Shown here: piece after piece, positions 19,505-47,593 of the stretch | Position numbering within the stretch: position 1 is the first letter of the stretch | How the letters are laid out: each line of letters begins with the position of its first letter | From: Escherichia phage vB_EcoM_ESCO8 | DNA: 64,000 bases | Reading direction: 5' to 3' (one strand) | Sequence record: OM386653.1 | Notes under the pieces: model-generated | Seen by the model: the letters and a program-made list of their open reading frames with translations, nothing else | What the model was told of the DNA's origin: nothing | Database searches by the model: none | Translations under genes and position numbers: made by a program

Positions 19505-20115
19505 ACCTTGTAGGTAAGAAATGCGGTTGTTATACTGTCTTAGAAGAGATTGAAAGGGACAAACATGGCAAAAGACGTTTTACTTGTTCTTGTGATTGTG
19601 GTAATATTTGCACGGTAACTATGGAAACACTTAGGAAGAGTAGAAGTTCTTATTGTTCCAAGTGTAGACCGAAAACAACACAAACAGGAGCATACAAATC
19701 GTGGGAAGCTATGTTAGGGAGATGCTATAACAAAAACAATACTCACTTTGAATACTACGGTGGTCGTGGTATTAAGGTTTGTGATGCTTGGAGAAATTCA
19801 TTCTCTGCATTCTTTGAGGATATGGGAGATAGACCTAAAGGTTTATCTCTTGACAGAATAGACTCGGAAAAAGATTACAGTAAAGAAAATTGTCGCTGGG
19901 CTACAAGGTCTGTCCAGTCATACAATACACGAAAACAGAAAAATAACACTTCTGGTAAAACAGGTGTTGTGTGGAGCGAGAAAGAAAAAAGATGGATTGC
20001 TCGTATATCCTATCAAGGAAAAGATATCCGTCTTGGAGCATTTATTGATATTGAAGATGCTATATCAGCAAGACAGGAAGCTGAAGTATTGTATTTTGGT
20101 AAGATTAAAACATAA
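19486..20115 (+). CDS. AP2-domain/zinc-finger endonuclease-like protein (possible homing endonuclease)
   Basis: N-terminal Cys cluster; C-terminal AP2-like VVWSEKEKRWIARISYQGKDIRLGAF. Confidence 0.55.
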   Translation: MGAKRVDLVGKKCGCYTVLEEIERDKHGKRRFTCSCDCGNICTVTMETLRKSRSSYCSKCRPKTTQTGAYKSWEAMLGRCYNKNNTHFEYYGGRGIKVCDAWRNSFSAFFEDMGDRPKGLSLDRIDSEKDYSKENCRWATRSVQSYNTRKQKNNTSGKTGVVWSEKEKRWIARISYQGKDIRLGAFIDIEDAISARQEAEVLYFGKIKT

Positions 20116-20126
20116 AGGAGGTTGCA

Positions 20127-20318
20127 ATGAACATTGAAGTTATTTTGATTCTTGTGTTGCTTTCTCTTGTTGCTTGTGGTATAATTTTCGCATCAACTTT
20201 CCCTCACCCAACATGGTGGCAGAAGGTTAGTCTGATGATTGTCTACGGTGCAGCAGGTGTACAAATGGGTGCAGTTGTTGTATATCTGGTGGAATTTACA
20301 AAACAATATTTTAAATAA
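20127..20318 (+). CDS. Small membrane protein (2 TM)
   Basis: ORF track; hydrophobic helices. Confidence 0.5.
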   Translation: MNIEVILILVLLSLVACGIIFASTFPHPTWWQKVSLMIVYGAAGVQMGAVVVYLVEFTKQYFK

Positions 20319-20327
20319 GGAGAAACA

Positions 20328-21050
20328 ATGATTGAGAATTTTTTTAAACAAGTAAAAGTGGACAATAGCTTCTTTATCAAAGCTGCCGATCAAATTGTTG
20401 CTTGGAATGCTAAGGCACGTGGTGGAGTAACTCCAGAATTTACTCAAGAGATGTTTGAAGCTCAACTTTCTTTTGTACGCGAAGAACTAAAAGAGTTTCA
20501 AGCAGCAGCACAGGAAAATGATCACGTTGAATTACTTGATGCAGCAGCAGATATTTTTGTGGTAGCCTCCTACCTGGCGTTTATGTTCTTTGGTAAAGAA
20601 GGTGTTGATAAAGCTCTGGAAATGCCAACAGGAGATGTTCTGGCAGAGAACATTTACGATGTTATCATTGAATTTGATAAAATGGTAGAAAATGACTTGC
20701 AATTTGCCTTAATGTCTCTTACACTTACCCGTATGGCACGAGATACTTTGGTGCGTTCTGTTTATAACGAGAAGAAGGTTATGCGTGAAGTGTTGAATAG
20801 CAATGAGTCCAAGTATCCTACCAAGAAGCAACTCCTGGCTATTTGGGAAACTAAGGATATTATTGAAGCTCTTGAAAAAGAGTGCGATGCTATCGAGATG
20901 CGAAGCAAAGATCGTGCAGAAGGTTCTTATACTGGGGTACATGCTGTATATAACGAAGTTCAAAAGGTGTACGTATTCTTTGATGACAAAGGTAAAATTA
21001 TGAAACCATCTACCTTTGTTAAACCTAATATCGCAGCAATCATTGCTTAA
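20328..21050 (+). CDS. MazG-like nucleoside triphosphate pyrophosphohydrolase (possible dNTPase)
   Basis: All-alpha acidic motifs (EELKEF, ELLDAAADI). Confidence 0.5.
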   Translation: MIENFFKQVKVDNSFFIKAADQIVAWNAKARGGVTPEFTQEMFEAQLSFVREELKEFQAAAQENDHVELLDAAADIFVVASYLAFMFFGKEGVDKALEMPTGDVLAENIYDVIIEFDKMVENDLQFALMSLTLTRMARDTLVRSVYNEKKVMREVLNSNESKYPTKKQLLAIWETKDIIEALEKECDAIEMRSKDRAEGSYTGVHAVYNEVQKVYVFFDDKGKIMKPSTFVKPNIAAIIA

Positions 21051-25074: not shown

Positions 25075-25252
25075 ACAATACGGAGAGGGTGAAGTATATA
25101 AAATATACAATAAACGTGGAGATAAACTCTTATATACAATCACAATCCCAGAAAACATGTGTAAGGCTGGTTTAGACCGTATGCTTTTCTTTAAATATAA
25201 CATTCCACCTGGAGATTATGTAGCTAAAAAGGTGAGCACTATTGGAAAATAA
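25058..25252 (+). CDS. Hypothetical protein
   Basis: ORF track. Confidence 0.4.
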   Translation: MASHGKQYGEGEVYKIYNKRGDKLLYTITIPENMCKAGLDRMLFFKYNIPPGDYVAKKVSTIGK

Positions 25253-25817
25253 AGAACCTAAAGTTATTTGGGGAGATGGAACACCTTGGAAAACTCAAGC
25301 AGCCTTTTATACATATTTAAGGGGTTGCTTAAGGAAAGCATGGGTGAGACACCCGAATAAGATAAAAAAGATCCAATCTGTACGATTTAAAGCTGATAGA
25401 TTGGATAAAGATGGAAATATAGTCTTAGATAAGAAAACAGGCAAACCGAAACAGGTTTGGAATTGTAAGTGTGAATTGTGTGGACATACAGGAGGTATGA
25501 AAGACTTTCAAGTAGACCATATTAATGCAGCAGGTACATTAACCTGTTATGAAGATATCCCAAGTTTTGTTTTACGCCTATTGTACGTAACAGAAGACGA
25601 CCTGCGTGTAGTTTGTAAGCAGTGTAACGCTATCCTGGCTTACGCTGACAAGCACGATATGACATTCAGGGAAGCAAAAGCGGAGAAGGAAGCGATAGCT
25701 TTATGCCAGTCTAAAAAGGATAAAAATTGGCTAACGAAGCGCGGAATTTCACCAGAAAGTACAGTAAGTAAGAGAAGAAAACAAATAGTAAAAATTCTTC
25801 TTGACGAAGAGAAATAA
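25242..25817 (+). CDS. HNH endonuclease (possible homing endonuclease)
   Basis: CKCELCGH...QVDHINAAG...CKQCN motif. Confidence 0.6.
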   Translation: MENKEPKVIWGDGTPWKTQAAFYTYLRGCLRKAWVRHPNKIKKIQSVRFKADRLDKDGNIVLDKKTGKPKQVWNCKCELCGHTGGMKDFQVDHINAAGTLTCYEDIPSFVLRLLYVTEDDLRVVCKQCNAILAYADKHDMTFREAKAEKEAIALCQSKKDKNWLTKRGISPESTVSKRRKQIVKILLDEEK

Positions 25818-25862: not shown

Positions 25863-26426
25863 ATGGCTAAACTTTATTTCCGATATAGTCCGATGAACAG
25901 TGGTAAAAGCACACATCTGCTACAAACAGCTTGGAACTATAAAGAAAGAAATATGAAAGTTCTTCTTTTAACTTCAGCTTTAGATACCAGATCTGGTTGT
26001 GCTATTGCTTCTAGGATAGGTATTAAAGAGGAAGCAAAACCAGTTAAAACAAAAGAAGATATGCTGGAAATTTATACACAACTTAAAGAAAATCCAGTCG
26101 ATGCAGTATTTGTGGACGAATCACAATTCCTAACTAAAGATATGGTTGACATTCTTGGAGATGTGGTAGATAATTACGATATTCCTGTATTCTGTTATGG
26201 GCTTAAAACAGATTTTGCTACAGAATTGTTTGAAGGTTCTGAACGGTTATTAGCCATAGCAGATTCAATTACAGAATTGAAAAGCATTTGTAAATGTGGA
26301 AGAAAAGCTATTTTCAATGCTAGACTTATCGACTCTAAAGAACAGATTGTTATTGGAGGAGAAGACATTTACGAAACAATGTGTAGAAAATGTTATAACA
26401 GGAGAAATAATGCGTCTAGTATGTGA
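25863..26426 (+). CDS. tdk: Thymidine kinase
   Basis: P-loop SPMNSGKST; C-terminal CxxC zinc motifs; 187 aa. Confidence 0.8.
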   Translation: MAKLYFRYSPMNSGKSTHLLQTAWNYKERNMKVLLLTSALDTRSGCAIASRIGIKEEAKPVKTKEDMLEIYTQLKENPVDAVFVDESQFLTKDMVDILGDVVDNYDIPVFCYGLKTDFATELFEGSERLLAIADSITELKSICKCGRKAIFNARLIDSKEQIVIGGEDIYETMCRKCYNRRNNASSM

Positions 26427-27000
26427 TTGGGATTTAGTAATAGCTCCTGCCGATATAGAATGGTTGAGTTGGTTAAATGCGGTAAGTAGATCTAATATCA
26501 AGTTTGATAAGACACAAAAGACTGTGCATTATGATATTACGAAATATTTTCCTGATTTTAAAAAGCAATTTGGTGTAGATCCTTACTCTTTTTGGGATAA
26601 CCAACATCTATATGATACTATGGGAGTAGTACCTAATAGTACAGATGTTGTTCATCGTATAATTGCAAATGGAGCTAATATATCTATAGCAAGCCACACT
26701 AAGGGTGGACACCTTAGTTCTAAATATAGACACGTAACACGATCTTTAGATAAAGTGGACTTTAGTAGAACATCTGGTAATGGCTTTTTCGCAACAAAAG
26801 AAAAATACTTATTACCTTGCGACGTAACTATTGACGATAGGGCTGAAAATCTTGTCCTATTTCCAGATGAAACGTTGAAAATATATTTCAACACTATTTA
26901 CGAAGATCCATACTTGGAAGAGTTAAAGAAACTTCCTAATGTAATTATCACTGGTTTAGATAATCAGTGGGAAGAAATTGAAAGTATTTTACTACCTTAA
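26410..27000 (+). CDS. 5'(3')-deoxyribonucleotidase, HAD family (probable)
   Basis: ORF track 26296..27000 trimmed to ATG after AGGAGA RBS; DWDLV HAD motif I. Confidence 0.55.
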   Translation: MRLVCDWDLVIAPADIEWLSWLNAVSRSNIKFDKTQKTVHYDITKYFPDFKKQFGVDPYSFWDNQHLYDTMGVVPNSTDVVHRIIANGANISIASHTKGGHLSSKYRHVTRSLDKVDFSRTSGNGFFATKEKYLLPCDVTIDDRAENLVLFPDETLKIYFNTIYEDPYLEELKKLPNVIITGLDNQWEEIESILLP

Positions 27001-27009
27001 GGAGAAATA

Positions 27010-27981
27010 ATGACAAACTCTATTTCAGCAAAAATTATTGCACACTCTCAAACATCTGAAGGTAAGGATATTGTTACCTTTGAACTTGAATATCCTCGAA
27101 TCATTCACTCTGAATTGATGACGCATCGTTTGTTTTCTCGTAATGCCGCATCAAGTCGAGCTATCCCTGTTAAAACTCTAATTGAAATGGTACGGCAATC
27201 TCCAGCACGTCCTTATCGTTTTGGTGCTAACCAACCAGGTATGCAAGATAAAGGCACAGATCACGATGCCCTGATTGATGCAGGTTACACTGCAAAAGAA
27301 TGGTGGGACTTGGCTGCGCTAAGTGCTGCACGTTTTGCAGAAGAGTTTGCCCTTGCTGGTTATCATAAACAGGTTGCAAACCGCCTACTAGAACCATTCC
27401 AGCGTATGAAGACTGTAGTAACCACTACAGAGCTAGAAAACTTCTTGTGGTTGCGCGTAGATGCTGATGCAGATCCTACTATTGAGGCTCTTGCTAAAGA
27501 AATTAAAAAACTGTATGAATCTTCTGAACCATATCTTCTTTTCCCAGGGGAATGGCATACACCTTACGTTAATCGTGATCGAGATCCAGAAACTGGTATG
27601 ATCCGTTATTTCTTGGGTGAAACCTTCTCCAACGAGAAAATGTTGACAGAAGAGGAAGCAAAAGCTATTTCAGCTTCTTGTTGCGCTCAGGTAAGTTATC
27701 GTAAATTGAATGATACTAAAGATAAAGCATTGGATATCTATTCTCGTTTGCTGTCTGGACAAAAGGTACATGCATCTCCGTTTGAACACCAGGCAACGCC
27801 AATGAAAGAAATGGATTTGTCAGGATTAAAACAACAGAAAGGTGGTATTAATATTCCTCCGTTCCCTACTTCTTGGGAAGAAGGTATTACACATATGGAT
27901 CGTAAACATCGTTTGTGGAGTGGAAACTTCTGTGGTTGGATTCAACATCGTCAACTTTTGACTAACCATACAAAATGGTAA
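27010..27981 (+). CDS. thyX: Flavin-dependent thymidylate synthase
   Basis: ThyX signature HRxFSRNxxSSR. Confidence 0.75.
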   Translation: MTNSISAKIIAHSQTSEGKDIVTFELEYPRIIHSELMTHRLFSRNAASSRAIPVKTLIEMVRQSPARPYRFGANQPGMQDKGTDHDALIDAGYTAKEWWDLAALSAARFAEEFALAGYHKQVANRLLEPFQRMKTVVTTTELENFLWLRVDADADPTIEALAKEIKKLYESSEPYLLFPGEWHTPYVNRDRDPETGMIRYFLGETFSNEKMLTEEEAKAISASCCAQVSYRKLNDTKDKALDIYSRLLSGQKVHASPFEHQATPMKEMDLSGLKQQKGGINIPPFPTSWEEGITHMDRKHRLWSGNFCGWIQHRQLLTNHTKW

Positions 27982-33342: not shown

Positions 33343-33540
33343 ATGATGCTAGATCAACTGATCAATACTCCTCGCGTAACAGTAAGTCCAAAAACATTTG
33401 CATCACTTTTAGAAGATGCTAGAGAGGTTTATAACTTTACTGAAGAAGAGATTCCTGTTCCTGTTGAAAAAGGTTCCAGATGGTTGTTTTATGAAGGTAT
33501 TATTTTTACTGAAGGGAATAATTGGAAGGAGACTAAATGA
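33343..33540 (+). CDS. Hypothetical protein
   Basis: ORF track 33250..33540 trimmed to ATG after AGGAGG RBS. Confidence 0.4.
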   Translation: MMLDQLINTPRVTVSPKTFASLLEDAREVYNFTEEEIPVPVEKGSRWLFYEGIIFTEGNNWKETK

Positions 33541-34526
33541 AATACTTAGTAACAGGTGGTTTAGGCTTTATTGGAAGTGCAGTAGTTCGTTTCCTGGCTA
33601 AAAATACTAAGAATGATATTTACGTTATAGATAAATGGGGTTACGCTTCAGACCCTAGAAATTTATCAGAAACACCTAATGTAAAGTTTTGTCGTGTTGA
33701 CTTGACAAATGCGCAGTTAACTGCTAAGATTGTGGCAGATGTTAATCCAGATTATATAATGCATCTTGCAGCAGAGAGTCACGTAGATAATTCAATAGCA
33801 TCACCGAGTGTTTTTATAAATTCAAATATTGTTGGAACATTTAATCTTCTAGAGGCTGTTCGTTTAATGGGAGATAAATCAAATCTTAAAATGTTCCATC
33901 ATATTTCAACAGATGAAGTGTATGGTGATATGGAAGAAGGGGATTATCCGTTTACAGAACAGAATCCTTATAAACCAAGTAGTCCATATGCTGCATCTAA
34001 AGCTGCAAGCGATCATTTGGTAAGAGCATGGCATCGTACTTATGGTATTCCGACAGTTATAACAAATTGTTCAAATAATTTTGGAGCATATCATCATCCA
34101 GAAAAACTAATACCTAAAACGATAACAAATATCTTGATGCATAAACCAATCCCTGTTTATGGCAATGGTCTTCAAGTAAGAGATTGGTTATACGTTGACG
34201 ATCACGCAGAAGCATTACACCTAGTAGTAACTAAAGGCAAATCTGGAGAAACATATAATATTGGGAGCAGAAACCCTAGAACTAATATTGATGTAATCTA
34301 TATGATTTGTGATTATATGGATGCGGTGTATCCATCTGAAACAGATGCTTGTAGCCTCATTGAAATGGTTACAGATAGACCTGGACATGATTTAAGATAC
34401 GAAGTGAATCCTTATAAGATTGAAAAGGAATTAGGGTGGAAAGCTAAAGGCATATTTGAAGAAAAACTTTATTCAACCATTGATTGGTATGTAGATAACA
34501 AAGAGTGGTGGGAAAATAAAGTTTAA
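33537..34526 (+). CDS. rfbB: dTDP-glucose 4,6-dehydratase
   Basis: N-terminal TGGLGFIGS Rossmann motif; 329 aa. Confidence 0.75.
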
Positions 34527-34534
34527 GGAGGAGT

Positions 34535-35404
34535 ATGAAAGGTATTATCTTAGCAGGTGGTAGTGGAACAAGACTTTACCCAGTTACTAAAGGGGTTAGT
34601 AAACAACTATTACCAATTTATGATAAGCCTATGATTTATTATCCACTCTCTGTCCTAATGCTTTCTGGAATTAGGGAAATACTAATAATTACAACACCAG
34701 AAGATCAAATTAATTTTGTAAATCTTCTAGGTGATGGTTCTTCTTTTGGTATTTCCCTACAGTATGCAATACAGGATAGCCCAAGAGGTTTAGCAGAAGC
34801 GTTTATTATTGGTGAGAACTTTATTGGTGAAGATTCTGTAGCACTTGTGCTAGGTGATAATTTATTCTTTGGTCAGAGTTTTGGTAGCATTTTAGATTCT
34901 GCTAAAGAACATATTGAAAAGAATGGTGGAGCTAATATTTTTGGGTATCACGTAAATGATCCTGAAAGATTTGGTGTTGTTGAGTTTGATTCTGAAGGTA
35001 CAGTGGTGAGTATTGAAGAAAAACCAAAAGCACCAAAAAGCAACTATGCAATCACAGGCTTGTACTTTTACGATAATTCTGTTGTACAGAAAGCTAAAAG
35101 CGTTAAACCTTCTGCTAGAGGGGAGTTAGAGATTACAGATATAAATGAGATGTACTGGAAAGAAAAGGCTTTACGTGTCTGTAAACTAGGAAGAGGTTTC
35201 ACTTGGCTGGATACAGGAACACATGAAAGTCTTATGGAAGCATCTCAATTTGTTCATGCAATAGAAAAGCAACAAGGTATGAAGGTTGCATGCCTGGAAG
35301 AGATTGCTTTTAAAAATGAATGGATTACTTTAGACTCTGTAAAAAGTTCTGGAGAGGTTTTAAGTAAAACAGACTACGGTAAGTATTTACTTAAATTAAA
35401 ATAA
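34535..35404 (+). CDS. rfbA: Glucose-1-phosphate thymidylyltransferase
   Basis: N-terminal [14 protein letters not shown]. Confidence 0.8.
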
Positions 35405-35416
35405 AGGGGGAATTAA

Positions 35417-35971
35417 ATGATTCAAGCAACAAAAATCGAAGATTTGTTGATCATTCAACCTGACGTTTACGGAGATGAACGTGGTTTTTTCTTAGAAAGT
35501 TTTAATCAGGCTTTATATGATCAATACATAGGTAAACAAAACTTTGTCCAAGATAACCATTCACGTTCTATTCGAGGAGTTCTACGTGGGCTTCATTTTC
35601 AAAAGAAAAACCCACAAGGGAAGTTAGTACGTTGTGTTCGTGGTGAAGTTTATGATGTTGCTGTAGATATTAGGGTTGGTAGTCCAACATTTGGAGAATG
35701 GGTAGGTGTTCTCTTATCTGAAAAGAATAAAACACAATTTTGGATTCCTCCTGGTTTCGCTCATGGCTTTGTTGTGATTAGTGACATTGCTGATTTTGAA
35801 TATAAATGTACAGAATATTACGATCCGACTTCAGAGTGTAGTCTTGCGTGGAATGATCCAGATATCAATATTGATTGGGGTTTTGATTTAATCTTTAATG
35901 ATATTAATTTTAAACCTATCTTGTCACAAAAAGATCAGCAAGCCAAAACACTAAAGGAGATCATATTTTGA
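35417..35971 (+). CDS. rfbC: dTDP-4-dehydrorhamnose 3,5-epimerase
   Basis: Cupin motifs; 184 aa. Confidence 0.7.
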   Translation: MIQATKIEDLLIIQPDVYGDERGFFLESFNQALYDQYIGKQNFVQDNHSRSIRGVLRGLHFQKKNPQGKLVRCVRGEVYDVAVDIRVGSPTFGEWVGVLLSEKNKTQFWIPPGFAHGFVVISDIADFEYKCTEYYDPTSECSLAWNDPDINIDWGFDLIFNDINFKPILSQKDQQAKTLKEIIF

Positions 35972-36798
35972 CAAAATTTTTAATCTTTGGTTCAAAAGGT
36001 CAATTAGGACAGTCTTTGGCAAAAGTTGCGCCCGAAGATGTTATTTTGATTGAAGCAAGTGATGTAGACATTACCAACTTTAAAGATGTTATGAATAGTC
36101 TTGTACAGCATGTGCCTGATGTTGTTGTGAATTGTGCGGCTTACACGGCAGTAGATAAAGCTGAAGAAGATGTTAACACCTGTATAAATGTTAATGCATA
36201 CGGTGCAACAAACATTGCCAAAGCATGTAATGATTTACTGATACAGTTTGTACATATTTCAACAGACTATGTTTTTGATGGGCATGTTGCTGGCACAGAA
36301 GATAGTAAAACAAACCCCTTGAACACCTACGGTTACAGTAAACAATTAGGTGAAACTTTAGTACAAACAGTTTGTCCTACAGCACTTATTATCAGAACAG
36401 CTTCTGTTTATAGTGAATTTGGACATAACTTTTTGAAAACTATGTTGGAACGCTACAACGGTGGTCAAAAAGAATTTAATGTAGTATGTGATCATTTGTC
36501 ATGTCCTACTTATGCACCTGATCTTGCAGAAACAATTTTTAAACTTGTAAAAGATGGTGTAAATAGTAAAGTTGTACACTATGCAGGTGCAGATTATATT
36601 TCTTGGTATGATTTTGCACGAAAGATATTTCTTGTTATAGATTTATCTGTTACAGTTAATCCTGTATCTGCTTCAACCTATAATTCCAAAGCAGTCAGAC
36701 CAGCAACATCTTATTTAAAAACAGATCCTACTTTAAATCCGCGAAGTGTTGATAGCGGTATTGTAAGAACTTTAACTATACTTTTAAACAAGGAGTGA
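35968..36798 (+). CDS. rfbD: dTDP-4-dehydrorhamnose reductase
   Basis: N-terminal IFGSKGQLG Rossmann motif; 276 aa; follows rfbC. Confidence 0.7.
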   Translation: MTKFLIFGSKGQLGQSLAKVAPEDVILIEASDVDITNFKDVMNSLVQHVPDVVVNCAAYTAVDKAEEDVNTCINVNAYGATNIAKACNDLLIQFVHISTDYVFDGHVAGTEDSKTNPLNTYGYSKQLGETLVQTVCPTALIIRTASVYSEFGHNFLKTMLERYNGGQKEFNVVCDHLSCPTYAPDLAETIFKLVKDGVNSKVVHYAGADYISWYDFARKIFLVIDLSVTVNPVSASTYNSKAVRPATSYLKTDPTLNPRSVDSGIVRTLTILLNKE

Positions 36799-39736: not shown

Positions 39737-40165
39737 ATGTTACCAGTACCTGTAACCTTTGTAGAAAAAGCCTACTACTCTTTAGAACAAAACTGTAAAA
39801 GAGCTAAAAATTTTATTGAAAGTTTAGCAGAACAGCGTTACACTGTATCTAAAAAGGGATGGTTCAGAACTTCACAATATTTAGTCAACCCTTTCGGAGA
39901 AGTTCGTGTGTTGTATGGCAACACAGAAAATATCTTAGAAAGAATGTTAGAACTAGATAGGATCTCCTCCTGTGATTATCAACTGTTGAAATTTTACGAT
40001 GTGTCAGAAAGCGTTAAAAACTTTCTTGACGACTTATGTAAACGAAAAACAGAAGAAGATACAATACCAGTATCTATGGAAGAATTAACATTCTTAAGAG
40101 ATATTATGGTTTTTGAAGAAGACCCTGAAATCACAAAAGAGGAGATTTTAAGTAGTGGCAAATAA
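39737..40165 (+). CDS. Hypothetical protein
   Basis: ORF track; GGAGG RBS. Confidence 0.5.
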   Translation: MLPVPVTFVEKAYYSLEQNCKRAKNFIESLAEQRYTVSKKGWFRTSQYLVNPFGEVRVLYGNTENILERMLELDRISSCDYQLLKFYDVSESVKNFLDDLCKRKTEEDTIPVSMEELTFLRDIMVFEEDPEITKEEILSSGK

Positions 40166-40664
40166 GTATGATCGTCCACCAACTGATTACTATCCTACTC
40201 CACAAAAATGTATAAATGCATTATTTAGTGTAATAGATTTTAATAACCTTAAAGAAGAAGGTTTTATTTTTGCAGAACCGTGTAAAGGCGCTGCTGCTGC
40301 AATTTATCAACATTTTCCAGAAGGATCAGAATATTGTGAGTTAGAAGAAGGGAAAGATTATTTTAACCACGAATGGCATACTAAGCCGGATATTATAATC
40401 ACAAATCCCCCATTCAAACTTGCACTTGAGTTCTTGCAAAAGAGCTTAAAAGAAGCAGACGTTTGCATATACTTGTTGCGTCTTGGGTTCCTAGAGTCTA
40501 TTAAACGAAGGGAATTCCATAAACAGAATCCACCAACAAACTTGATTGTTCTTTCTGAACGACCATCTTTTGTTGCAGGTGGTACTGATAAGACAGCATA
40601 TGCTTGGTACGTCTACGACCCAAAAAACAGGCTGGGTTTAACTCAACCTTTCTATTTTGTTTAA
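40155..40664 (+). CDS. Small N6-adenine DNA methyltransferase (probable)
   Basis: Catalytic motif IITNPPF; ~169 aa. Confidence 0.55.
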   Translation: MANKYDRPPTDYYPTPQKCINALFSVIDFNNLKEEGFIFAEPCKGAAAAIYQHFPEGSEYCELEEGKDYFNHEWHTKPDIIITNPPFKLALEFLQKSLKEADVCIYLLRLGFLESIKRREFHKQNPPTNLIVLSERPSFVAGGTDKTAYAWYVYDPKNRLGLTQPFYFV

Positions 40665-40677
40665 GAGGAGCATTTTT

Positions 40678-40908
40678 ATGACCGAGAAATTTACTGTTAC
40701 TATGGAACTCACCTTTGATGAAGAAGATTTTGATCTTCATGTATCAACTAAAGCAGATAACATTCACACAACACAGAGTGTTGCAATCGCTATGTTCTTT
40801 AAACAAGCTATTGCAAAACAAGCTGAAGTATGTGCTGGTTTAGCTGTAGAGTATGCAGAAGTTGTCAAGGTTCTTGAAAGTGCTCGTAACGGCGATTGGG
40901 ATGAATAA
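40678..40908 (+). CDS. Hypothetical protein
   Basis: ORF track 40657..40908 trimmed to ATG after AAGAGGAG RBS. Confidence 0.45.
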   Translation: MTEKFTVTMELTFDEEDFDLHVSTKADNIHTTQSVAIAMFFKQAIAKQAEVCAGLAVEYAEVVKVLESARNGDWDE

Positions 40909-41111
40909 TGGCATACAATTACTATCTGGTATATTTTAACGAAACTAAGAAAAAAGACACAGGAACTAATGTTTATGCGGAATCCGAAGAACACGCAAAA
41001 GCTATTGGTTCCGTGCTTCTTTCTAGAATAGCAGGTGAAGAAATTCCTGTAGAGGCTATTTTTGCAGAAGTTGACCCTGGTATTCAAGAGGATGATATTA
41101 CCACTACTTAA
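40908..41111 (+). CDS. Hypothetical protein
   Basis: ORF track. Confidence 0.4.
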   Translation: MAYNYYLVYFNETKKKDTGTNVYAESEEHAKAIGSVLLSRIAGEEIPVEAIFAEVDPGIQEDDITTT

Positions 41112-41114
41112 CTG

Positions 41115-41143
41115 TTGACTTTAACATTAAGGTAGTGCATACT
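41115..41143 (+). promoter_or_regulatory. Sigma70-like promoter candidate (TTGACT-N17-CATACT)
   Basis: Hexamers upstream of recombinase gene. Confidence 0.3.
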
Positions 41144-41168
41144 TCCTGTAACAGAACAGGAGGGTATT

Positions 41169-41831
41169 ATGAAGTTTGTACTGTATCATCGACTTTCTAA
41201 GAAGAAACAACAAGGCAACCAGTATGGTATAGAATCACAGGAAGCAGATATTCAACGCTTCCTGGATTCACAAGAAAATTATACTATTGTAGGTAGCTTT
41301 GCAGAGTTTTATTCGGGTAAAGGCGATTGGAAGCAACGTAGAGAGCTTGTAAAAGCTGTTAATCTTTGTAAAGAAACAGGTGCTACACTTGTTGTTGCTA
41401 AGGTTGACCGTCTTGGACGTAACACAGCCTCTGTTGCAACCTTATTAGAGATGATTAATGTACGAATAGCAACTATGCCCTCCGCTGAAAATATGATAAT
41501 AAATATTTTAGCAGTTCTGGCAGAAGAAGAGGCTCGTGCAATATCTGATCGTGTTAAGAAGAGCCTTAAGGTAGCAAAAGCGAAGGGAACGCTTCTTGGT
41601 GCAGCAAACCCTAAATACAAAAGAACAGATTATACGAAAACGGAAGAAGCAAAACGCTCAAAAGAGTTTGCGCTTTCTTTAAAAGATTCTTTAGTTGCAT
41701 ACAGAGCTTGTAAAACGCCATATATGACGATTGCAAAGCATCTGAATGAATCAGGAAAGAGAACTATTCGTGGGAGTTTGTTCGATGCCAAAGCGGTACA
41801 ACGTCTTTGTGCAAAATTGAATATTAAATAA
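41169..41831 (+). CDS. Small serine recombinase (resolvase/invertase family)
   Basis: N-terminal YHRLS; VAKVDRLGRN motif; 220 aa. Confidence 0.6.
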   Translation: MKFVLYHRLSKKKQQGNQYGIESQEADIQRFLDSQENYTIVGSFAEFYSGKGDWKQRRELVKAVNLCKETGATLVVAKVDRLGRNTASVATLLEMINVRIATMPSAENMIINILAVLAEEEARAISDRVKKSLKVAKAKGTLLGAANPKYKRTDYTKTEEAKRSKEFALSLKDSLVAYRACKTPYMTIAKHLNESGKRTIRGSLFDAKAVQRLCAKLNIK

Positions 41832-41840
41832 GGAGGAAAC

Positions 41841-42044
41841 ATGGTAGTTCAATCTTTTGAGGAGACTGTTAAAAAACAATTCCTATCGAAGCGAGCGATG
41901 GTTGAATTTTTGCATTTTCTCGAAGTAGATAGGGTACTTATTGAGACTACACCAGATGGTAACTGGCAAGTCTCGTATATTGCCACCAGGCATATCGTAG
42001 ACAGTACGAAAGAAGAAAGTTCGGAAGTTACGGTTGCTAGTTAA
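41841..42044 (+). CDS. Hypothetical protein
   Basis: ORF track. Confidence 0.4.
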   Translation: MVVQSFEETVKKQFLSKRAMVEFLHFLEVDRVLIETTPDGNWQVSYIATRHIVDSTKEESSEVTVAS

Positions 42045-42055
42045 AGGAGTTAAAT

Positions 42056-42628
42056 ATGCGTTTAGCTTTTAACGGGAAGATAAGCACAGCAAACATATTA
42101 TCAGCCATAGGATTATTAGGTAAAAAATTCACACCTTTCAGTTTACCTGTTTGTGTAGATTTTGATCATGTATTTGATATTAATAATCCTTCACGTTGTA
42201 TCGCCAGAAGTAATATTGATAACCCAAGTGAAAATCTGTTTTATATTACTAAACCATCCCAGGCAATTTTGAATCAATGGGAAGCAGGTCTGATTAAACC
42301 AGGTAAATATTTTGCATTACTACCTTGTAAATCATTGGCTATAGAGGACAGTCTAAACTATGCAAACAATCTTGTTGTTACAGCATTCATTGTCTCAGAA
42401 AAAGAAGAAACTGCGGCACTTGCAAACACTGTTAAATCTTTGTATGATGCTTTGGGTGTTACTTACACTACCTTCGTTTGTGAAGATATTCCACATTGCG
42501 TTGAATTCGTGGTGAATGGTGTAACTGTATGTCGTGTAGAAACAACTCAAGACGAAGACGTTTTTATTACTGTAGCCGATGTAATATCTGAACCTGTGTT
42601 TAGCTACGCAGTTTCATTAACACATTAA
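42056..42628 (+). CDS. Hypothetical protein
   Basis: ORF track. Confidence 0.45.
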   Translation: MRLAFNGKISTANILSAIGLLGKKFTPFSLPVCVDFDHVFDINNPSRCIARSNIDNPSENLFYITKPSQAILNQWEAGLIKPGKYFALLPCKSLAIEDSLNYANNLVVTAFIVSEKEETAALANTVKSLYDALGVTYTTFVCEDIPHCVEFVVNGVTVCRVETTQDEDVFITVADVISEPVFSYAVSLTH

Positions 42629-42638
42629 GGAGAAGGGG

Positions 42639-42965
42639 ATGAAAATAACGACAGAACAGGCTTTAATAGACAAAGGAAGGGAAATCTTAGAAAGTCATTT
42701 GGAGGATATTCAAAGGACTCCAGGGTATCTCGGCTGGCGTATACAAGAAGCCGTCGATTTTCTACCCCGTAAAAATAAAGAGATTGAAGTAAGATCTCTA
42801 TTCCTCCTTGTTAAAGTAGATGGTGACGCTATATACAAAGATGTAGCGTCTCACATTGAACAAATAGAAGAAAAAGCCTACAAAGAATTTGCAGATCTTG
42901 TTGTAGAACATAATATAGAAGGTAAAGTTAATATCTTTATACTTATGGATTTTGAGGAGAGTTGA
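42639..42965 (+). CDS. Hypothetical protein
   Basis: ORF track. Confidence 0.45.
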   Translation: MKITTEQALIDKGREILESHLEDIQRTPGYLGWRIQEAVDFLPRKNKEIEVRSLFLLVKVDGDAIYKDVASHIEQIEEKAYKEFADLVVEHNIEGKVNIFILMDFEES

Positions 42966-43708
42966 TGCTAGTATATCAAGAAATTAGTGTAAAAGATGAT
43001 CAAGACCTGTTTATTATTGGTGATTTACATGGTTGCTTTGATTTGTACCAGAAAGGTGTTAATACTTTAGGTATCCGAGATCAAGATGTTGTTGTATCTT
43101 TAGGAGATCTTACAGATCGCGGCAAGCAGAATTTTCGTTGTGTTGTTGAATTCACCAGAAAGCTAAATCGTTATGGTATTCGTGGAAATCATGAAGATAT
43201 GATGATTAAAGGGTTGCTAGAAGGTGATAGACGATATTACGAATGTTGGTTTCAGAACGGAGGCCATACAGTTCTAGACGAGTGTGGAGAAGAGGGTGCA
43301 ACTGCTCTTGCTTTGATGCTAGAAGATTTACCTGTTGTACTTGTTGTCAATTATCGTAATATGAAACTAGGCTTTATTCACGGTGGGTATCCTTCAGTTT
43401 TGGAACATTTACCAGTGACAGAAGTTTTGCCATTTTGTTTGAATATGAATAAAGAGCAAGTTTCTCGATTCACAGAATCTTTAATGTGGGATCGTGATAT
43501 GATAGATTGCGCACTTGAAGGGATTCTTCTTCCTAGAGTTTCAGGAGTAGATTATGTATTTCACGGGCATTCTTATGTTCCTAAACCTGTGATTAGCAGT
43601 AATAGGGTATATATGGACACAGGATCTTGCTTCAATGGTAATTTAACCTTTGCATATTTTGATGATTCAAATACGTTACAATTTTATTCTACTTTAGAGG
43701 AGGACTAA
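42962..43708 (+). CDS. Ser/Thr protein phosphatase, PP-lambda-like
   Basis: Motifs GDLHG, GDLTDRG, GNHE. Confidence 0.7.
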   Translation: MMLVYQEISVKDDQDLFIIGDLHGCFDLYQKGVNTLGIRDQDVVVSLGDLTDRGKQNFRCVVEFTRKLNRYGIRGNHEDMMIKGLLEGDRRYYECWFQNGGHTVLDECGEEGATALALMLEDLPVVLVVNYRNMKLGFIHGGYPSVLEHLPVTEVLPFCLNMNKEQVSRFTESLMWDRDMIDCALEGILLPRVSGVDYVFHGHSYVPKPVISSNRVYMDTGSCFNGNLTFAYFDDSNTLQFYSTLEED

Positions 43709-44028
43709 TGTATAAAATCACAATTAAAGAAACAGTAGGAGAACTTACGAAAGAAACTACTATTGAGACGGAAGATGTTGAGTTAGTCAAAGAGCTTTTA
43801 TTTCCAAAACCAGAAATAAAAGATAATGATGAACAGTTGGATGAAGATAATGAGACAGCAAGGGATAAATGGAAGAAACAACTAGCGGAGATTTGGAAAA
43901 AGCCTGAAGTAACTCCTCCATTTGATCCTCGTAGACCTTATAATCCTTGGGAAATTGGAAGCCCTTGGTTTACGTACCCTATCACTCCAATTGTTAATCC
44001 AATTGTTACTCCCAATATTACTTGTTAA
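43708..44028 (+). CDS. Hypothetical protein
   Basis: ORF track. Confidence 0.45.
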   Translation: MYKITIKETVGELTKETTIETEDVELVKELLFPKPEIKDNDEQLDEDNETARDKWKKQLAEIWKKPEVTPPFDPRRPYNPWEIGSPWFTYPITPIVNPIVTPNITC

Positions 44029-44038
44029 GGAGAAAACC

Positions 44039-44617
44039 ATGAGCGATTTATTCTACACAGGTGTTGGTAGCAGAGATATTACAGACGAAGAATGGGATAC
44101 TATGGTATCTGTTGCAAAATGGCTATCTACATGGTTCATTTTGCGATCTGGTAAAGCAGAAGGTGCAGATTCCGCATTTGAATGCGGGGTATATGATAGT
44201 GGGAACAATACAAAGAAAGAAATATACATCCCTTGGCTCTCGTTTAAAGGTAATGAAATAGAGGGAGAGGTTATTGTTCTTGACAGACCAGATAGTGTAA
44301 ACTATGCTTTAACCTTGCAATATGCAAAAGAATTGCATCCAGCTTGGGACAGATTATCTCAAGGTGCTAAAAAATTACATCAAAGAAATATCCACCAAGT
44401 TCTTGGAAGAGATCTTGAGAATCCAAAACCATCTTGTTTTCTTTTAGCTTGTGCAAATACAGATAAAAATGGAGATCCTTTAGGTGGTACAAGAACAGCT
44501 TGGATGTTGGCTAAAAAGTTTAATGTTCCTTGTTTTAATATTCGAGGTAAAAGTAAAAAACAAATTTTCGAATTTATTAAGCCTATTTTAGAGGAGAATG
44601 GTCTTGTCCAGAAATAA
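44039..44617 (+). CDS. DprA/Smf-like Rossmann-fold protein (putative)
   Basis: ORF track 43922..44617 trimmed to ATG after AAGGAGAA; motifs GVGSRD and SGKAEGADSAFE. Confidence 0.4.
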   Translation: MSDLFYTGVGSRDITDEEWDTMVSVAKWLSTWFILRSGKAEGADSAFECGVYDSGNNTKKEIYIPWLSFKGNEIEGEVIVLDRPDSVNYALTLQYAKELHPAWDRLSQGAKKLHQRNIHQVLGRDLENPKPSCFLLACANTDKNGDPLGGTRTAWMLAKKFNVPCFNIRGKSKKQIFEFIKPILEENGLVQK

Positions 44618-45122
44618 TATAAGCGTCATTAAAGATAGCTTTATTGATGTAACAAACGATATTGTACCTACAATACAATATATAGTTGAGGCACAAGGTT
44701 TAAACTTTATACGTGATAAAGTTAAGATTGTTTTTCATAACACTCCAGGTTTTGTAACAGTGGGTTCAACAAAAACGCCGTGCTCTACAGATCTGATTAC
44801 TTTAGACAAAAACTTAACACAAGAAGAAGTAGAAATTCTTAACCTCTATTGGTTAGGTTTTAAAAGATACGAGGATACAGCTTTATCCAGAATGTCAACT
44901 ATTTTAGCTAATATTCTGGTTCGGAAAATTTCTAAAATATGGGATGAAGAAAACCCAGATGAAATAGTTTTACACTTTGCTAAACCGGAAGACGGGGCAT
45001 ATGATATAGACACATCTGAAATGGCTTATGGATTTATTATTTCTGGTAATGTATTACAGATGGAATCTTTATTGTATGTTGAGACAGTAAAACACAATAA
45101 CAACTACGAGGAGGTTGTATGA
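44598..45122 (+). CDS. Hypothetical protein
   Basis: ORF track. Confidence 0.4.
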   Translation: MVLSRNNISVIKDSFIDVTNDIVPTIQYIVEAQGLNFIRDKVKIVFHNTPGFVTVGSTKTPCSTDLITLDKNLTQEEVEILNLYWLGFKRYEDTALSRMSTILANILVRKISKIWDEENPDEIVLHFAKPEDGAYDIDTSEMAYGFIISGNVLQMESLLYVETVKHNNNYEEVV

Positions 45123-45376
45123 AAGGTTTAGAGTTTAACTTTGTAGATGCGTGGGAAGGATGGGATGAACTAGGAGTAGGGGATTTATGTTTTTATGATG
45201 TTACCTTGAAGGAAGAATACAAACATCTAGCTCCTAGTGAAGATTGCGATGTGATTCTATCTATTCTGTTAAGTCAGTCTATAGTGCAATTCGATTTCTT
45301 AAAAGGTAGTGAATGTATTGAAAGTAAAGCATTCCGTTTAGAAGTTTCTCTTGGTGAAGAAGTTCCTGTAGAATAA
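45119..45376 (+). CDS. Hypothetical protein
   Basis: ORF track. Confidence 0.4.
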   Translation: MKGLEFNFVDAWEGWDELGVGDLCFYDVTLKEEYKHLAPSEDCDVILSILLSQSIVQFDFLKGSECIESKAFRLEVSLGEEVPVE

Positions 45377-45379
45377 TAT

Positions 45380-45404
45380 AAACCCGCTTCGGCGGGTTTT
45401 TTGT
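45380..45404 (+). terminator. Rho-independent terminator (ACCCGC-TTCG-GCGGGT + TTTTTG)
   Basis: Canonical stem-loop and T-run. Confidence 0.75.
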
Positions 45405-45432
45405 TGACAACACTAGTTTTTTCGAATAAACT
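45404..45432 (+). promoter_or_regulatory. Sigma70-like promoter (TTGACA-N17-TAAACT)
   Basis: Directly after terminator, upstream of 45459. Confidence 0.45.
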
Positions 45433-45458
45433 ACAGAAAAACAGAAGAGGAGTTTAGC

Positions 45459-45869
45459 ATGTATTATAGTGATTATTTTGTAAACCCAACAAAAGAACAA
45501 CTTCAATCAGCAGTGGATAAGATGCAGATTGTAGTTAAAGAATGTGAGAAAATAAGAAAACAACTACAAGAGGAGACTGTTGTTGTTAATAAATGGTTTG
45601 GTCTTAAGAAGAAAGTTGTTAGTAAACACAATATCATCCTTGAAAAAGCAAAAACGACAGGAACTAGTTACGCCTTACAAGCCTTGTTACTAAATTACAT
45701 TGATATAGAACAACATTCTCTTCTGCACTGTTGGCTTAACAGCCCTGGTATTGAGGATCTCTTGTTCTGGTTATCGTGTGAATCTGTACTTTTAAATGAG
45801 AATGAGGCTTACCGTTTAAACTTCTGCCTCAAGGCAGAATTACCAGCTAGTGTTAAGGAGAAGAAGTAA
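45459..45869 (+). CDS. Hypothetical protein
   Basis: ORF track; GAGGAG RBS. Confidence 0.5.
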   Translation: MYYSDYFVNPTKEQLQSAVDKMQIVVKECEKIRKQLQEETVVVNKWFGLKKKVVSKHNIILEKAKTTGTSYALQALLLNYIDIEQHSLLHCWLNSPGIEDLLFWLSCESVLLNENEAYRLNFCLKAELPASVKEKK

Positions 45870-45871
45870 TA

Positions 45872-46861
45872 ATGAAAGTTTTAAGTCTTTTTGATGGTAT
45901 GTCAGGAGGAATGCTTGCGCTAAAAAGTGCAGGTATTGAAGTAGATACATATTACGCTTCAGAATTAGACAAATTTGCCGTAGCTGAAAGCCAAGCAAAT
46001 TTTCCAGATATTATTCAGTTAGGTGATGTTACAAAATGGAGAGAATGGGATATCCCGTGGGGAGAAATTGATCTTTTGTTAGGTGGTAGTCCGTGTCAAG
46101 GCTTCTCTTCTTCTGGTAAGGGTTTGAACTTTCAAGATCCGCGATCTAAGCTATTCTTCGAATATGTTGAAATTCTTGAACATATTAAAAAGTTTAATCC
46201 TAATGTTAAGTTCATGCTTGAAAACGTTAAGATGAAAGCGGAGTGGGAAAACGTGATCACAAGTTACTTAGGTGTTGATCCCGTATTCATTAACTCCGCA
46301 GATTTCACGGCACAGAATAGACAACGTTTATACTGGTGCAACTGGGAAATAAAACCCTGGGAGATTACCAATGAAGTGTTGCAAGATATCATTGAAGATG
46401 ATAGTATTGTAGACAGAGATAAGGCTTATTGCATAGATGCAAATTATGCCAAAGGTGGTAATATAGAACAGTATTTTGAAAAGAGTCGCAGACAACTGGT
46501 TTTTTATCCGGCAGCAATATATGGGCGTAGAATTAATGAAAATGGCAAACGTAGTACATCTAAAACTGATCGTTTGGTACATTGTTTGGAAGTTCAGGAC
46601 AGTGGAAAAACTCGTTGCCTCACAACTGTGCCTAAAGACGTACTATTAGCTTATATTCCACCTGGAAGATATCTAGATGCCTTTGAAAAATTAAGTGAAG
46701 GCGTACATTATAGAAAGTTAACGGTTAAAGAGTGTTGCCGCTTGCAAGGTGTGCCAGATGACTACTTTAAAGTGAGTAGTAACACACAAGCATATAAGAT
46801 GTTAGGCAATGGTTGGACTATACCTGTCATTGCACATATTCTTAAATGTATGGAGGAATAA
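45872..46861 (+). CDS. DNA (cytosine-5)-methyltransferase
   Basis: Motif I FDGMSGG, motif IV GGSPCQGFS, motif VI ENV. Confidence 0.75.
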   Translation: MKVLSLFDGMSGGMLALKSAGIEVDTYYASELDKFAVAESQANFPDIIQLGDVTKWREWDIPWGEIDLLLGGSPCQGFSSSGKGLNFQDPRSKLFFEYVEILEHIKKFNPNVKFMLENVKMKAEWENVITSYLGVDPVFINSADFTAQNRQRLYWCNWEIKPWEITNEVLQDIIEDDSIVDRDKAYCIDANYAKGGNIEQYFEKSRRQLVFYPAAIYGRRINENGKRSTSKTDRLVHCLEVQDSGKTRCLTTVPKDVLLAYIPPGRYLDAFEKLSEGVHYRKLTVKECCRLQGVPDDYFKVSSNTQAYKMLGNGWTIPVIAHILKCMEE

Positions 46862-46983
46862 TGGAAACATTGTGGAAAGGCTGGAAGACTGCTGTGATAG
46901 CTTTTATAATTCCATTAACTTTTCTTGGTTGGTGTTTTTGGGAATTTATCTTTTGGTTAATTTCCCATATACATTGGGGGTAA
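46861..46983 (+). CDS. Small membrane protein (40 aa)
   Basis: Hand translation; ATG overlaps upstream stop; GGAGG RBS. Confidence 0.4.
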   Translation: METLWKGWKTAVIAFIIPLTFLGWCFWEFIFWLISHIHWG

Positions 46984-46984
46984 T

Positions 46985-47593
46985 ATGACTCAAAAAGTTG
47001 CATATCAAGTAGATCGTGAAGATGGTGAAGGTAGTGTTGTAGTTTTTGATACACATGGTCTTGCAGCAAGACGCAAAGGTGCTTGTCTACTGGACATTGG
47101 TGGTGAAGATGAATACTGCACTGTACGTAGAGTAAAAGAATTTGATCAATATGCTGAAAAAGGTTTTGTACCCGTGAAAGCACTATTAGAAGCTGGATGG
47201 TGGATACCTAGTGCACATGATTATGATATTTTGGAAGATACAGATGAATTCAACAGTGAAGATTTTGTTTTTTCTCTGGATGAAAAATGTGTTTGGAAAA
47301 ACTGGGATGAAATGGAACGCCATGCTTATTTTATAAACGAAGCATTAGATCGTAAAACTTGGTTTGAAAATACAGTTAAAGCAGCGTATCCTCAATTTAC
47401 TTTTACACAGTTTTGGGGTGGCCCACATCATATTACTCATACAGCATATTTCGAGTTCCCAGGTTCACGTTATAAAGGTACTGTTTATTGGGATTGGGAC
47501 GAGAACAAAGAACCTTCTGCTCAAGATTTCCGTTGCTATGTTTGTCAAGGTGATCAAGAAGCCCTTGACAAGTACCTTAAAAGTCTGGTATAA
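46985..47593 (+). CDS. Hypothetical protein
   Basis: ORF track. Confidence 0.5.
   Translation: MTQKVAYQVDREDGEGSVVVFDTHGLAARRKGACLLDIGGEDEYCTVRRVKEFDQYAEKGFVPVKALLEAGWWIPSAHDYDILEDTDEFNSEDFVFSLDEKCVWKNWDEMERHAYFINEALDRKTWFENTVKAAYPQFTFTQFWGGPHHITHTAYFEFPGSRYKGTVYWDWDENKEPSAQDFRCYVCQGDQEALDKYLKSLV

Follow-up and report, generated by a model that had tools for sequence, protein, structure and literature searches.

The 64,000-nucleotide stretch of DNA analysed here (the window) comes from Escherichia phage vB_EcoM_ESCO8 (sequence record OM386653.1), a phi92-like virulent E. coli myovirus of the genus Justusliebigvirus in the subfamily Stephanstirmvirinae, and carries genes for a small putative N6-adenine methyltransferase (40155-40664), a C5-cytosine methyltransferase (45872-46861), a MazG-like nucleoside triphosphate (NTP) pyrophosphohydrolase (20328-21050) and the synthesis of dTDP (deoxythymidine diphosphate)-L-rhamnose (33537-36798). 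A first-pass annotation had combined these genes into the proposal that the phage DNA is probably methylated and perhaps further modified as protection against restriction. We indeed found its three open reading frames (ORFs) for the methyltransferases and the MazG-like protein on the plus strand with the motifs that it had named, and the accompanying dTDP-rhamnose operon is real, given that rmlB, rmlA, rmlC and rmlD all score above their equivalog cut-offs. The methyltransferase, MazG-like and rml genes are scattered over 26 kb amid replication, nucleotide-metabolism and unknown genes, and their phylogenetic distributions differ; their co-occurrence is real, but they are not a functional cluster. 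Positions 40000-47000 of the window share 98-99% nucleotide identity with 55 public phage records, among them phi92, EmilieFrey (Bas61), PATM, Paula and BME3, with EmilieFrey and PATM being 98.9% and 99.0% identical, respectively. The gene order of these Justusliebigvirus genomes matches that of the window, and their records already label the genes in question as "putative N6 adenine methyltransferase", "Dcm-like C5 cytosine methyltransferase", "nucleotide pyrophosphohydrolase" and dTDP-rhamnose enzymes. The finding as such is therefore already known, with the genes annotated in dozens of public genomes and the idea of rhamnose on DNA in print.

The C5-cytosine methyltransferase (45872-46861, plus strand) is a Justusliebigvirus-specific protein of 329 residues that matches PF00145 over residues 1-327 (E-value 3e-43; 148.8 bits, cut-off 22) and TIGR00675 over its whole length (141.2 bits, cut-off 100.65). 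Its motifs follow the canonical order from LFDGMSGG (residues 6-13) over motif IV GSPCQGFS with the catalytic cysteine (residues 72-79; 46085-46108, plus strand), motif VI ENV (residues 117-119; 46220-46228, plus strand) and QNRQR (residues 148-152) to motif IX RKLTVKECCRLQG (residues 281-293) and GNGW (residues 312-315). These catalytic motifs align with those of M.HhaI, M.HaeIII and DNMT3, motif IV with the PCQ motif of M.HhaI and motif VI with known C5 enzymes. The protein shares with M.HhaI and M.HaeIII, which represent the type II orphan C5 enzymes of the PF00145 family, both a similar size of about 330 residues and an identical succession of motifs I, IV, VI, VIII (QxRxR), IX and X. Copies with no less than 95% identity are present in 54 phage records, as opposed to only about 52% identity for the next relatives, which belong to Vibrio and jumbo phages; to judge from these comparisons, the gene is a genus-specific acquisition. 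Most likely, the enzyme would set 5-methylcytosine (5mC) at a short motif on replicated phage DNA.

The presumed target-recognition domain of the C5 enzyme is the variable region between motifs VIII and IX (residues 153-280; 46328-46711, plus strand), and comparisons with the PDB and NCBIfam revealed no similarity of these ca. 128 residues to characterised enzymes. Orthology to E. coli Dcm is ruled out by a score of 30.2 bits against NF007772 (cut-off 710) that covers only residues 280-328, and a Dcm/EcoRII-type enzyme methylating CCWGG was likewise rejected, given that only the C-terminal motifs can be aligned with the Dcm structures 3lx6 and 3me5; the frequency of CCWGG, which is as expected for a phi92-like genome as well as for phage phAPEC8, says nothing on Dcm-type specificity. 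Phage phAPEC8 lacks the C5 enzyme and carries another methyltransferase (phrog_757) in that slot between Sir2 and DprA-like genes. A comparison of site avoidance between a phi92-like genome and phAPEC8 gave no enzyme-specific signal, with GCGC, CGCG and GCNGC at expectation in both, just like CCWGG. Similarly, no candidate motif is enriched as a deamination hot spot among the 795 positions at which the window and EmilieFrey differ by C versus T, where CpG is enriched only 1.4-fold and the top contexts are synonymous third-codon positions. CpG itself is found at 0.70 of expectation in the window, which has a TpG/CpA excess of 1.13, and at 0.71 in the phi92-like genome, but this depletion is not attributable to the C5 enzyme because phAPEC8 is depleted likewise (0.76). 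E. coli MG1655, which encodes McrA, McrBC and Mrr, was the isolation host of several phages of the genus, and we tentatively regard dense methylation of the purine-5mC type as unlikely for this reason.

The small methyltransferase (40155-40664, plus strand) is a stand-alone protein of 169 residues with the core of a gamma-type N6-adenine (amino) methyltransferase. Its ORF begins with a GTG start codon behind a GAGGAG Shine-Dalgarno sequence and overlaps the upstream ORF by 11 nucleotides. All three core motifs are strongly conserved in an alignment of 38 diverse homologues: T15 is invariant and D11, Y13 and P16 are present in at least 90% for the motif X-like DYYPTP (residues 11-16; 40185-40202, plus strand), E41 and P42 are invariant and F39, C43 and G45 present in at least 90% for the motif I-like FAEPCKGAAAA that makes up the S-adenosylmethionine (SAM)-binding loop (40269-40301, plus strand), and T83, N84, P85 and P86 are invariant and F87 present in at least 90% for the catalytic motif IV TNPPF (residues 83-87; 40401-40415, plus strand). 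This last motif is not a chance tetrapeptide because N84-P85-P86 are invariant and F87 nearly so across these homologues, and the motif order X-I-IV with an (N/D)PP(F/Y) tetrapeptide is that of the gamma class. The predicted structure is a confident Rossmann fold of the class I SAM-methyltransferase type that matches N6-adenine methyltransferases, and the protein also matches PHROG 799 ("DNA methyltransferase") with an E-value of 8e-57. Judged from these features, N6-adenine chemistry is well supported, and we consider DNA the likely substrate, which the enzyme would most likely methylate at a short or relaxed motif.

The family of this protein extends over approximately 500 phage records of Vequintavirinae, Phapecoctavirus and Justusliebigvirus, and in rV5-like phages the gene is located directly 3' of a Clp/HslV protease gene with no conserved partner gene. 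The overlapping upstream ORF of 142 amino acids was considered as a partner subunit and rejected as it is not conserved alongside the methyltransferase gene in these phages. Unlike M.TaqI and MmeI with their C-terminal target-recognition domain or HsdM with its specificity subunit, the small methyltransferase has neither and is essentially a catalytic domain only. It might therefore instead be a methyltransferase forming N6-methyladenine (m6A) in rRNA or tRNA as do METTL5 and PH1948, which would leave only the C5 enzyme and a third methyltransferase of PF01555 type, encoded by relatives outside of the window, to act on DNA. The rRNA m6A enzymes PH1948 (13.5) and METTL5 (13.2) do in fact match the protein as well as DNA enzymes do, 169 residues leave no space for a DNA target-recognition domain, and genes for PhoH-like and tRNA-synthetase-like proteins and (in phage CR8) a tRNA nucleotidyltransferase are found nearby. 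Additionally, no DNA-methyltransferase model of Pfam or NCBIfam matches the protein; unlike gamma-class DNA enzymes and METTL5/PH1948, it has no curated counterpart at all in Pfam or NCBIfam (E-value threshold 0.01) or among PDB sequences (E-value threshold 10). On the other hand, phage annotations and the PHROG label name a DNA methyltransferase, though this is annotation and not a test, and gp078 of phAPEC8, a "putative DNA N6-adenine methyltransferase" of 264 amino acids, matches phrog_799 with its N-terminal ca. 120 residues. To our knowledge, phage-encoded rRNA methyltransferases are rare and orphan DNA methyltransferases common, and we regard an RNA substrate as unlikely, though well worth keeping in mind.

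The MazG-like protein (20328-21050, plus strand) is a predicted all-alpha NTP pyrophosphohydrolase of 240 residues with a conserved C-terminal extension that matches PF01503 of the PRA-PH/MazG clan (31.1 bits, cut-off 21.3) and PHROG 671 ("nucleotide pyrophosphohydrolase", E-value 6e-28). Its metal-binding acidic signature EExxE...DxxxD runs from EELKE (residues 52-56) to DAAAD (residues 71-75; 20481-20552, plus strand), with E53 and D75 invariant among 30 homologues and E52, E56 and D71 present in at least 90% of these. All 162 cluster representatives of the family are unnamed, none of the close relatives is characterised, and a search of the PDB with the family profile gave a weak match to HisE (E-value 0.18). 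The gene lies within a block of genes for ligase, recombination, exonuclease, thymidine kinase, ThyX and ribonucleotide reductase functions and is a core gene of the rV5-like supergroup (Vequintavirus, Mydovirus and Phapecoctavirus), irrespective of rml or C5 methyltransferase content. It is not specifically tied to either of these because Vequintavirus phages without both carry it, together with the small methyltransferase, a distribution that lends no support to the functional link between MazG and the methyltransferases made in the first-pass annotation. We suggest that the protein would be a nucleotide-pool pyrophosphohydrolase of the replication and nucleotide-metabolism module, playing no role in base replacement. 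Between the thymidine kinase and ThyX genes, we further noticed a protein of 234 residues (26296-27000, plus strand) that scores 22.9 bits against the 5'-deoxynucleotidase family NT5C, below the cut-off of 24.8, and that may, from its sequence, be another nucleotide-pool enzyme.

The contiguous genes rmlB, rmlA, rmlC and rmlD (33537-36798, plus strand) encode the complete dTDP-L-rhamnose pathway, as evident from matches to the NCBIfam equivalogs TIGR01181 (439 bits, cut-off 365), TIGR01207 (473 bits, cut-off 361), TIGR01221 (260 bits, cut-off 156) and TIGR01214 (254 bits, cut-off 224). Likely users of the sugar nucleotide are the products of four glycosyltransferase genes that adjoin primase/helicase and polymerase genes in relatives, outside of the window. 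In EmilieFrey, these genes (bas61_0046-0049) encode two GT-B-like paralogues, one GT-A enzyme with a FIFDDD motif and one protein of 187 amino acids. The rml genes and the four glycosyltransferases are common to phi92-like phages and phAPEC8, and their presence in phAPEC8 without the C5 enzyme gives no support to the link between rml and the methyltransferases that had been drawn from their joint occurrence. R16, D64-D66 and E141-D142 of the GT-A protein (bas61_0048 type) are invariant, and its fold is generic GT-A/GT2 with nearest solved structures that act on polysaccharide, teichoic acid or protein, including RmlT, which uses dTDP-rhamnose. An attempt to derive the glycosyl acceptor from the fold using BFVD and the PDB gave no discrimination, given that proven DNA-modifying GT-A enzymes have the same nearest PDB neighbours. 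Among isolated phages, the only distant relatives of the GT-A protein are glycosyltransferases of Cluster F mycobacteriophages (Che8 type) with 25-30% identity over ca. 70% of its length, a weak match limited to the nucleotide-sugar-binding half; close relatives of these mycobacteriophages carry glycans on capsid proteins. Our literature search found no report of a glycosylated virion protein of phi92-like phages. The rml operon would feed the four glycosyltransferases, which are more likely to glycosylate a protein or an envelope glycan than DNA.

The response of near-identical phages to bacterial defences has been recorded in previous work. The BASEL study described the group as "exceptionally susceptible" to restriction-modification (RM) systems despite its "putative dTDP glycosylation machinery", and in the underlying raw data EmilieFrey formed 2.7e7 plaque-forming units on the vector control but no plaques on hosts with EcoRI, EcoRV or EcoP1. 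We counted 35 GAATTC and 50 GATATC sites in the EmilieFrey genome, matching the published values of 70 and 100 for both orientations, and the window contains 16 and 26 of these sites, respectively. Furthermore, the bacteriophage exclusion (BREX) system lowers PATM and "Pau" by ca. 7 logs, and both phages belong to the class that is not targeted by BrxU, an enzyme cutting DNA with 5mC, 5-hydroxymethylcytosine (5hmC) or glucosyl-5hmC. Bas61 and Bas62 are also sensitive to Druantia III and ARMADA II.

Signs of restriction are also apparent in the genome sequences themselves. Among hexamers with an expected count of at least 5, six-base palindromes are absent far more often than other hexamers, with 15 of 54 palindromes compared to 5 of 1982 non-palindromes missing from a 146.7-kb relative and 7 of 40 compared to 3 of 1867 missing from the window. 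The relative lacks all AAGCTT (45 expected), GGWCC (46), CTGCAG (32), GGTACC (22), AGTACT (22), CAGCTG (20) and GGATCC (20) sites, and the window contains none of AAGCTT, CTGCAG, GGATCC, GGTACC, CCATGG, CAGCTG and AGTACT with 6-20 of each expected, while GATC, CCWGG, GCGC, GAATTC and GATATC are found at expectation. This purging of palindromes implies that the sites were exposed to nucleases, and the avoidance of sites indicates that restriction is evaded by site loss. Many purged sites (e.g., AAGCTT, CTGCAG, CAGCTG, GAGCTC and TGGCCA) contain GpC, the dinucleotide at which phage C5 methyltransferases associated with TET enzymes usually act. Which sites are purged differs between relatives: phAPEC8 keeps 111 AAGCTT, 66 GGWCC, 14 GGTACC and 9 AGTACT sites, none of which are found in phi92-like phages, but avoids GTAC far more strongly (0.35 of expectation) than these do (0.77). 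The 111 AAGCTT sites of phAPEC8 compared to none in phi92-like phages would fit the notion that methyltransferase content shapes which sites need to be purged. Separately, we noticed non-palindromic hexamers that are nearly absent from phi92-like and phAPEC8 genomes, including GACATC/GATGTC (2 compared to 40 expected) and CTCATC/GATGAG (2 compared to 44), which could be targets of type IIS, type III or BREX-like systems or else signals of the phages themselves. The genomes of both groups also lack GAGACC/GGTCTC (13-23 expected), the recognition site of Eco31I/BsaI.

We favour the view, with a probability of roughly 0.7, that ESCO8 and its relatives carry ordinary orphan methyltransferases, a MazG-like enzyme of the nucleotide pool and an rml operon serving protein or envelope glycans, and that they defend themselves chiefly by site loss. 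The protection given by each methyltransferase would then be confined to a few restriction systems, those with sites that it covers, and recognition-site loss rather than DNA chemistry would be the main defence against type II restriction. The first part of the original proposal, that the DNA is probably methylated, is reasonable from gene content with an intact, genus-conserved C5 enzyme, an N6-adenine-type enzyme and the PF01555 enzyme of relatives, and we regard site-specific methylation as plausible. Its second part, further modification against restriction, found no support: near-identical phages are sensitive to EcoRI, EcoRV, EcoP1, BREX, Druantia III and ARMADA II and are not targeted by BrxU, recognition sites have been purged, and no enzyme making hydroxylated pyrimidines was found in the proteins and annotations covered below. 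Protective hypermodification therefore seems unlikely.

Several observations nevertheless weigh against this assignment of roles, beginning with the resemblance of the small methyltransferase to rRNA enzymes discussed above. The comparisons of the C5 enzyme with the PDB and NCBIfam aligned only its catalytic motifs, from which no target can be inferred, and neither a methylome nor a nucleoside analysis of a phi92-like phage turned up in our literature search, so that methylation is deduced from gene content. The restriction tests cited above used sites without GpC or CpG, and a sparse, motif-restricted modification would have escaped them. The GT-A gene is found beside primase/helicase and DNA polymerase genes, its invariant residues recall the R...DDD...EDY/F signature of DNA-modifying GT-A enzymes, and its product has weak, sub-threshold matches to PF20691 (TAGT; 23.3 bits, cut-off 27.5) and to phrog_842, the PHROG of the beta-glucosyl-hydroxymethylcytosine (HMC) alpha-glucosyltransferases of T2 and T6.

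As an alternative to our view, the DNA could be hypermodified, with phage glycosyltransferases moving rhamnose from dTDP-rhamnose onto hydroxylated pyrimidines that may stem from 5mC, the product of the C5 enzyme, and the MazG-like protein helping to bias the nucleotide pool. Rhamnosylation of hydroxymethylated nucleotides had already been suggested for these phages by Olsen et al. (2020), who called the location of the rml operon inside the nucleotide-metabolism block "peculiar". All four glycosyltransferase genes abut the replication genes, and TarP and chondroitin synthase are top PDB matches both of the GT-A protein and of proven DNA-modifying GT-A enzymes. As in the DNA glycosylation systems of T-even phages, Mosigvirus and TET-type phages, a sugar-nucleotide supply and a C5 methyltransferase occur together with glycosyltransferases encoded close to replication genes. 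Unlike in these systems, we found neither a ThyA-type hydroxymethylase or hydroxylase nor a 5-methylpyrimidine dioxygenase of TET/JBP type, phi92-like phages are sensitive to restriction and insensitive to BrxU, and the donor would be dTDP-rhamnose. The only thymidylate-synthase-like gene that we saw encodes a homologue of the flavin-dependent ThyX type (27010-27981, plus strand; PF02511 36.9 bits, cut-off 24.8; TIGR02170 35.5 bits, below its cut-off) and not of the ThyA type, from which hydroxymethyl- or hydroxy-pyrimidines arise. No match to TET/JBP or ThyA-type enzymes was detected among ca. 45 proteins of the window and a relative's genome that were scanned, a set that leaves many small ORFs outside, and no enzyme making hydroxylated bases figures in the EmilieFrey and phAPEC8 annotations, whether manual or based on PHROG. 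The protein encoded by bas61_0054 was considered as a dioxygenase but not accepted, with a cupin match of 18 bits that is below the cut-off and no PHROG function.

Further evidence points in the same direction. Phage phAPEC8 maintains rml and the four glycosyltransferases without a C5 methyltransferase, plating of EmilieFrey is abolished by EcoRI, EcoRV and EcoP1, and the loss of GpC-containing sites would have been needless were those cytosines masked. Neither phi92 nor phAPEC8 is named in one supplementary file of the survey of DNA glycosyltransferases by Pyle et al., and searches for "rhamnos" or "dTDP" gave no match in the two DNA-glycosylation papers covered. The signature residues and sub-threshold matches of the GT-A protein are generic to GT2-like enzymes. 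We therefore consider glycosylated, hydroxylated pyrimidines in these phages very unlikely, and rhamnosylated DNA in general would be a great surprise. It is similarly hard to credit that the rml pathway and the GT-A and GT-B enzymes place a rhamnose-containing glycan on DNA at sparse, sequence-restricted positions without any ThyA- or TET-type enzyme. If true, such sparse rhamnosylation would be invisible to the EcoRI, EcoRV, EcoP1 and BrxU tests and would represent the first rhamnosylated DNA as well as a new route to DNA glycosylation.

Orphan methyltransferases that protect a few sites also need to be weighed against the idea that these enzymes serve phage physiology, e.g., the timing of replication and packaging or gene regulation, or that they are remnants of mobile or selfish cassettes with little effect on host range. 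The phages are indeed highly sensitive to restriction despite two to three methyltransferases, and in another family, Drexlerviridae, the authors of the BASEL study could not tie restriction resistance to methyltransferase genes in any simple way. The different methyltransferase in the corresponding slot of phAPEC8 suggests cassette-like turnover, and genes for HNH endonucleases and a serine recombinase are close by. Yet the C5 enzyme is conserved with intact motifs across its 54 records, which suggests selection, and the contrast in AAGCTT sites between phAPEC8 and phi92-like phages fits a real role against restriction. On balance, a main purpose other than protection against restriction appears rather improbable to us, and we retain the interpretation of ordinary orphan methyltransferases with limited protective scope.

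Beyond these main subjects, we noticed several further genes. Two HNH endonuclease genes are encoded at 19486-20115 (plus strand; PHROG 374, E-value 2e-72) and 25242-25817 (plus strand; PHROG 1985, E-value 9e-66). The former, located between the genes for DNA ligase and the MazG-like protein, falls into an alignment gap to EmilieFrey (19450-20301) and is a strain-specific insertion resembling homing endonucleases because it is missing from that phage, from which ESCO8 otherwise seems to differ only by point differences. A serine recombinase or DNA invertase (41169-41831, plus strand; PF00239, E-value 8e-22) is encoded between the two methyltransferase genes of this virulent phage. In EmilieFrey, the region 3' of the glycosyltransferase genes, outside of the window, harbours a set of Ter-type genes (TerD, a vWA-TerF-like protein, TelA and TerC) that resembles bacterial tellurite-resistance stress-response systems and is accompanied by genes for a ComF-like phosphoribosyltransferase, a HAD hydrolase and a macro-domain protein. 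We also note that GenBank records of "Campylobacter phages" (MG0656xx series, host C. jejuni) show protein identities to E. coli phage genes of either ca. 98-99%, as for phi92-like phages, or ca. 47%, the level seen for rV5-like phages, and that these records are probably mislabelled or represent isolates contaminated by coliphage.

For the biology of these phages, the questions of interest are what is glycosylated by the conserved module of rml and four glycosyltransferase genes in Stephanstirmvirinae, which substrate the small methyltransferase acts on, and which motif is methylated by the C5 enzyme. Phi92-like phages infect a very broad range of hosts and are components of therapy cocktails, which gives practical value to knowing the restriction systems that they evade and those that they do not.

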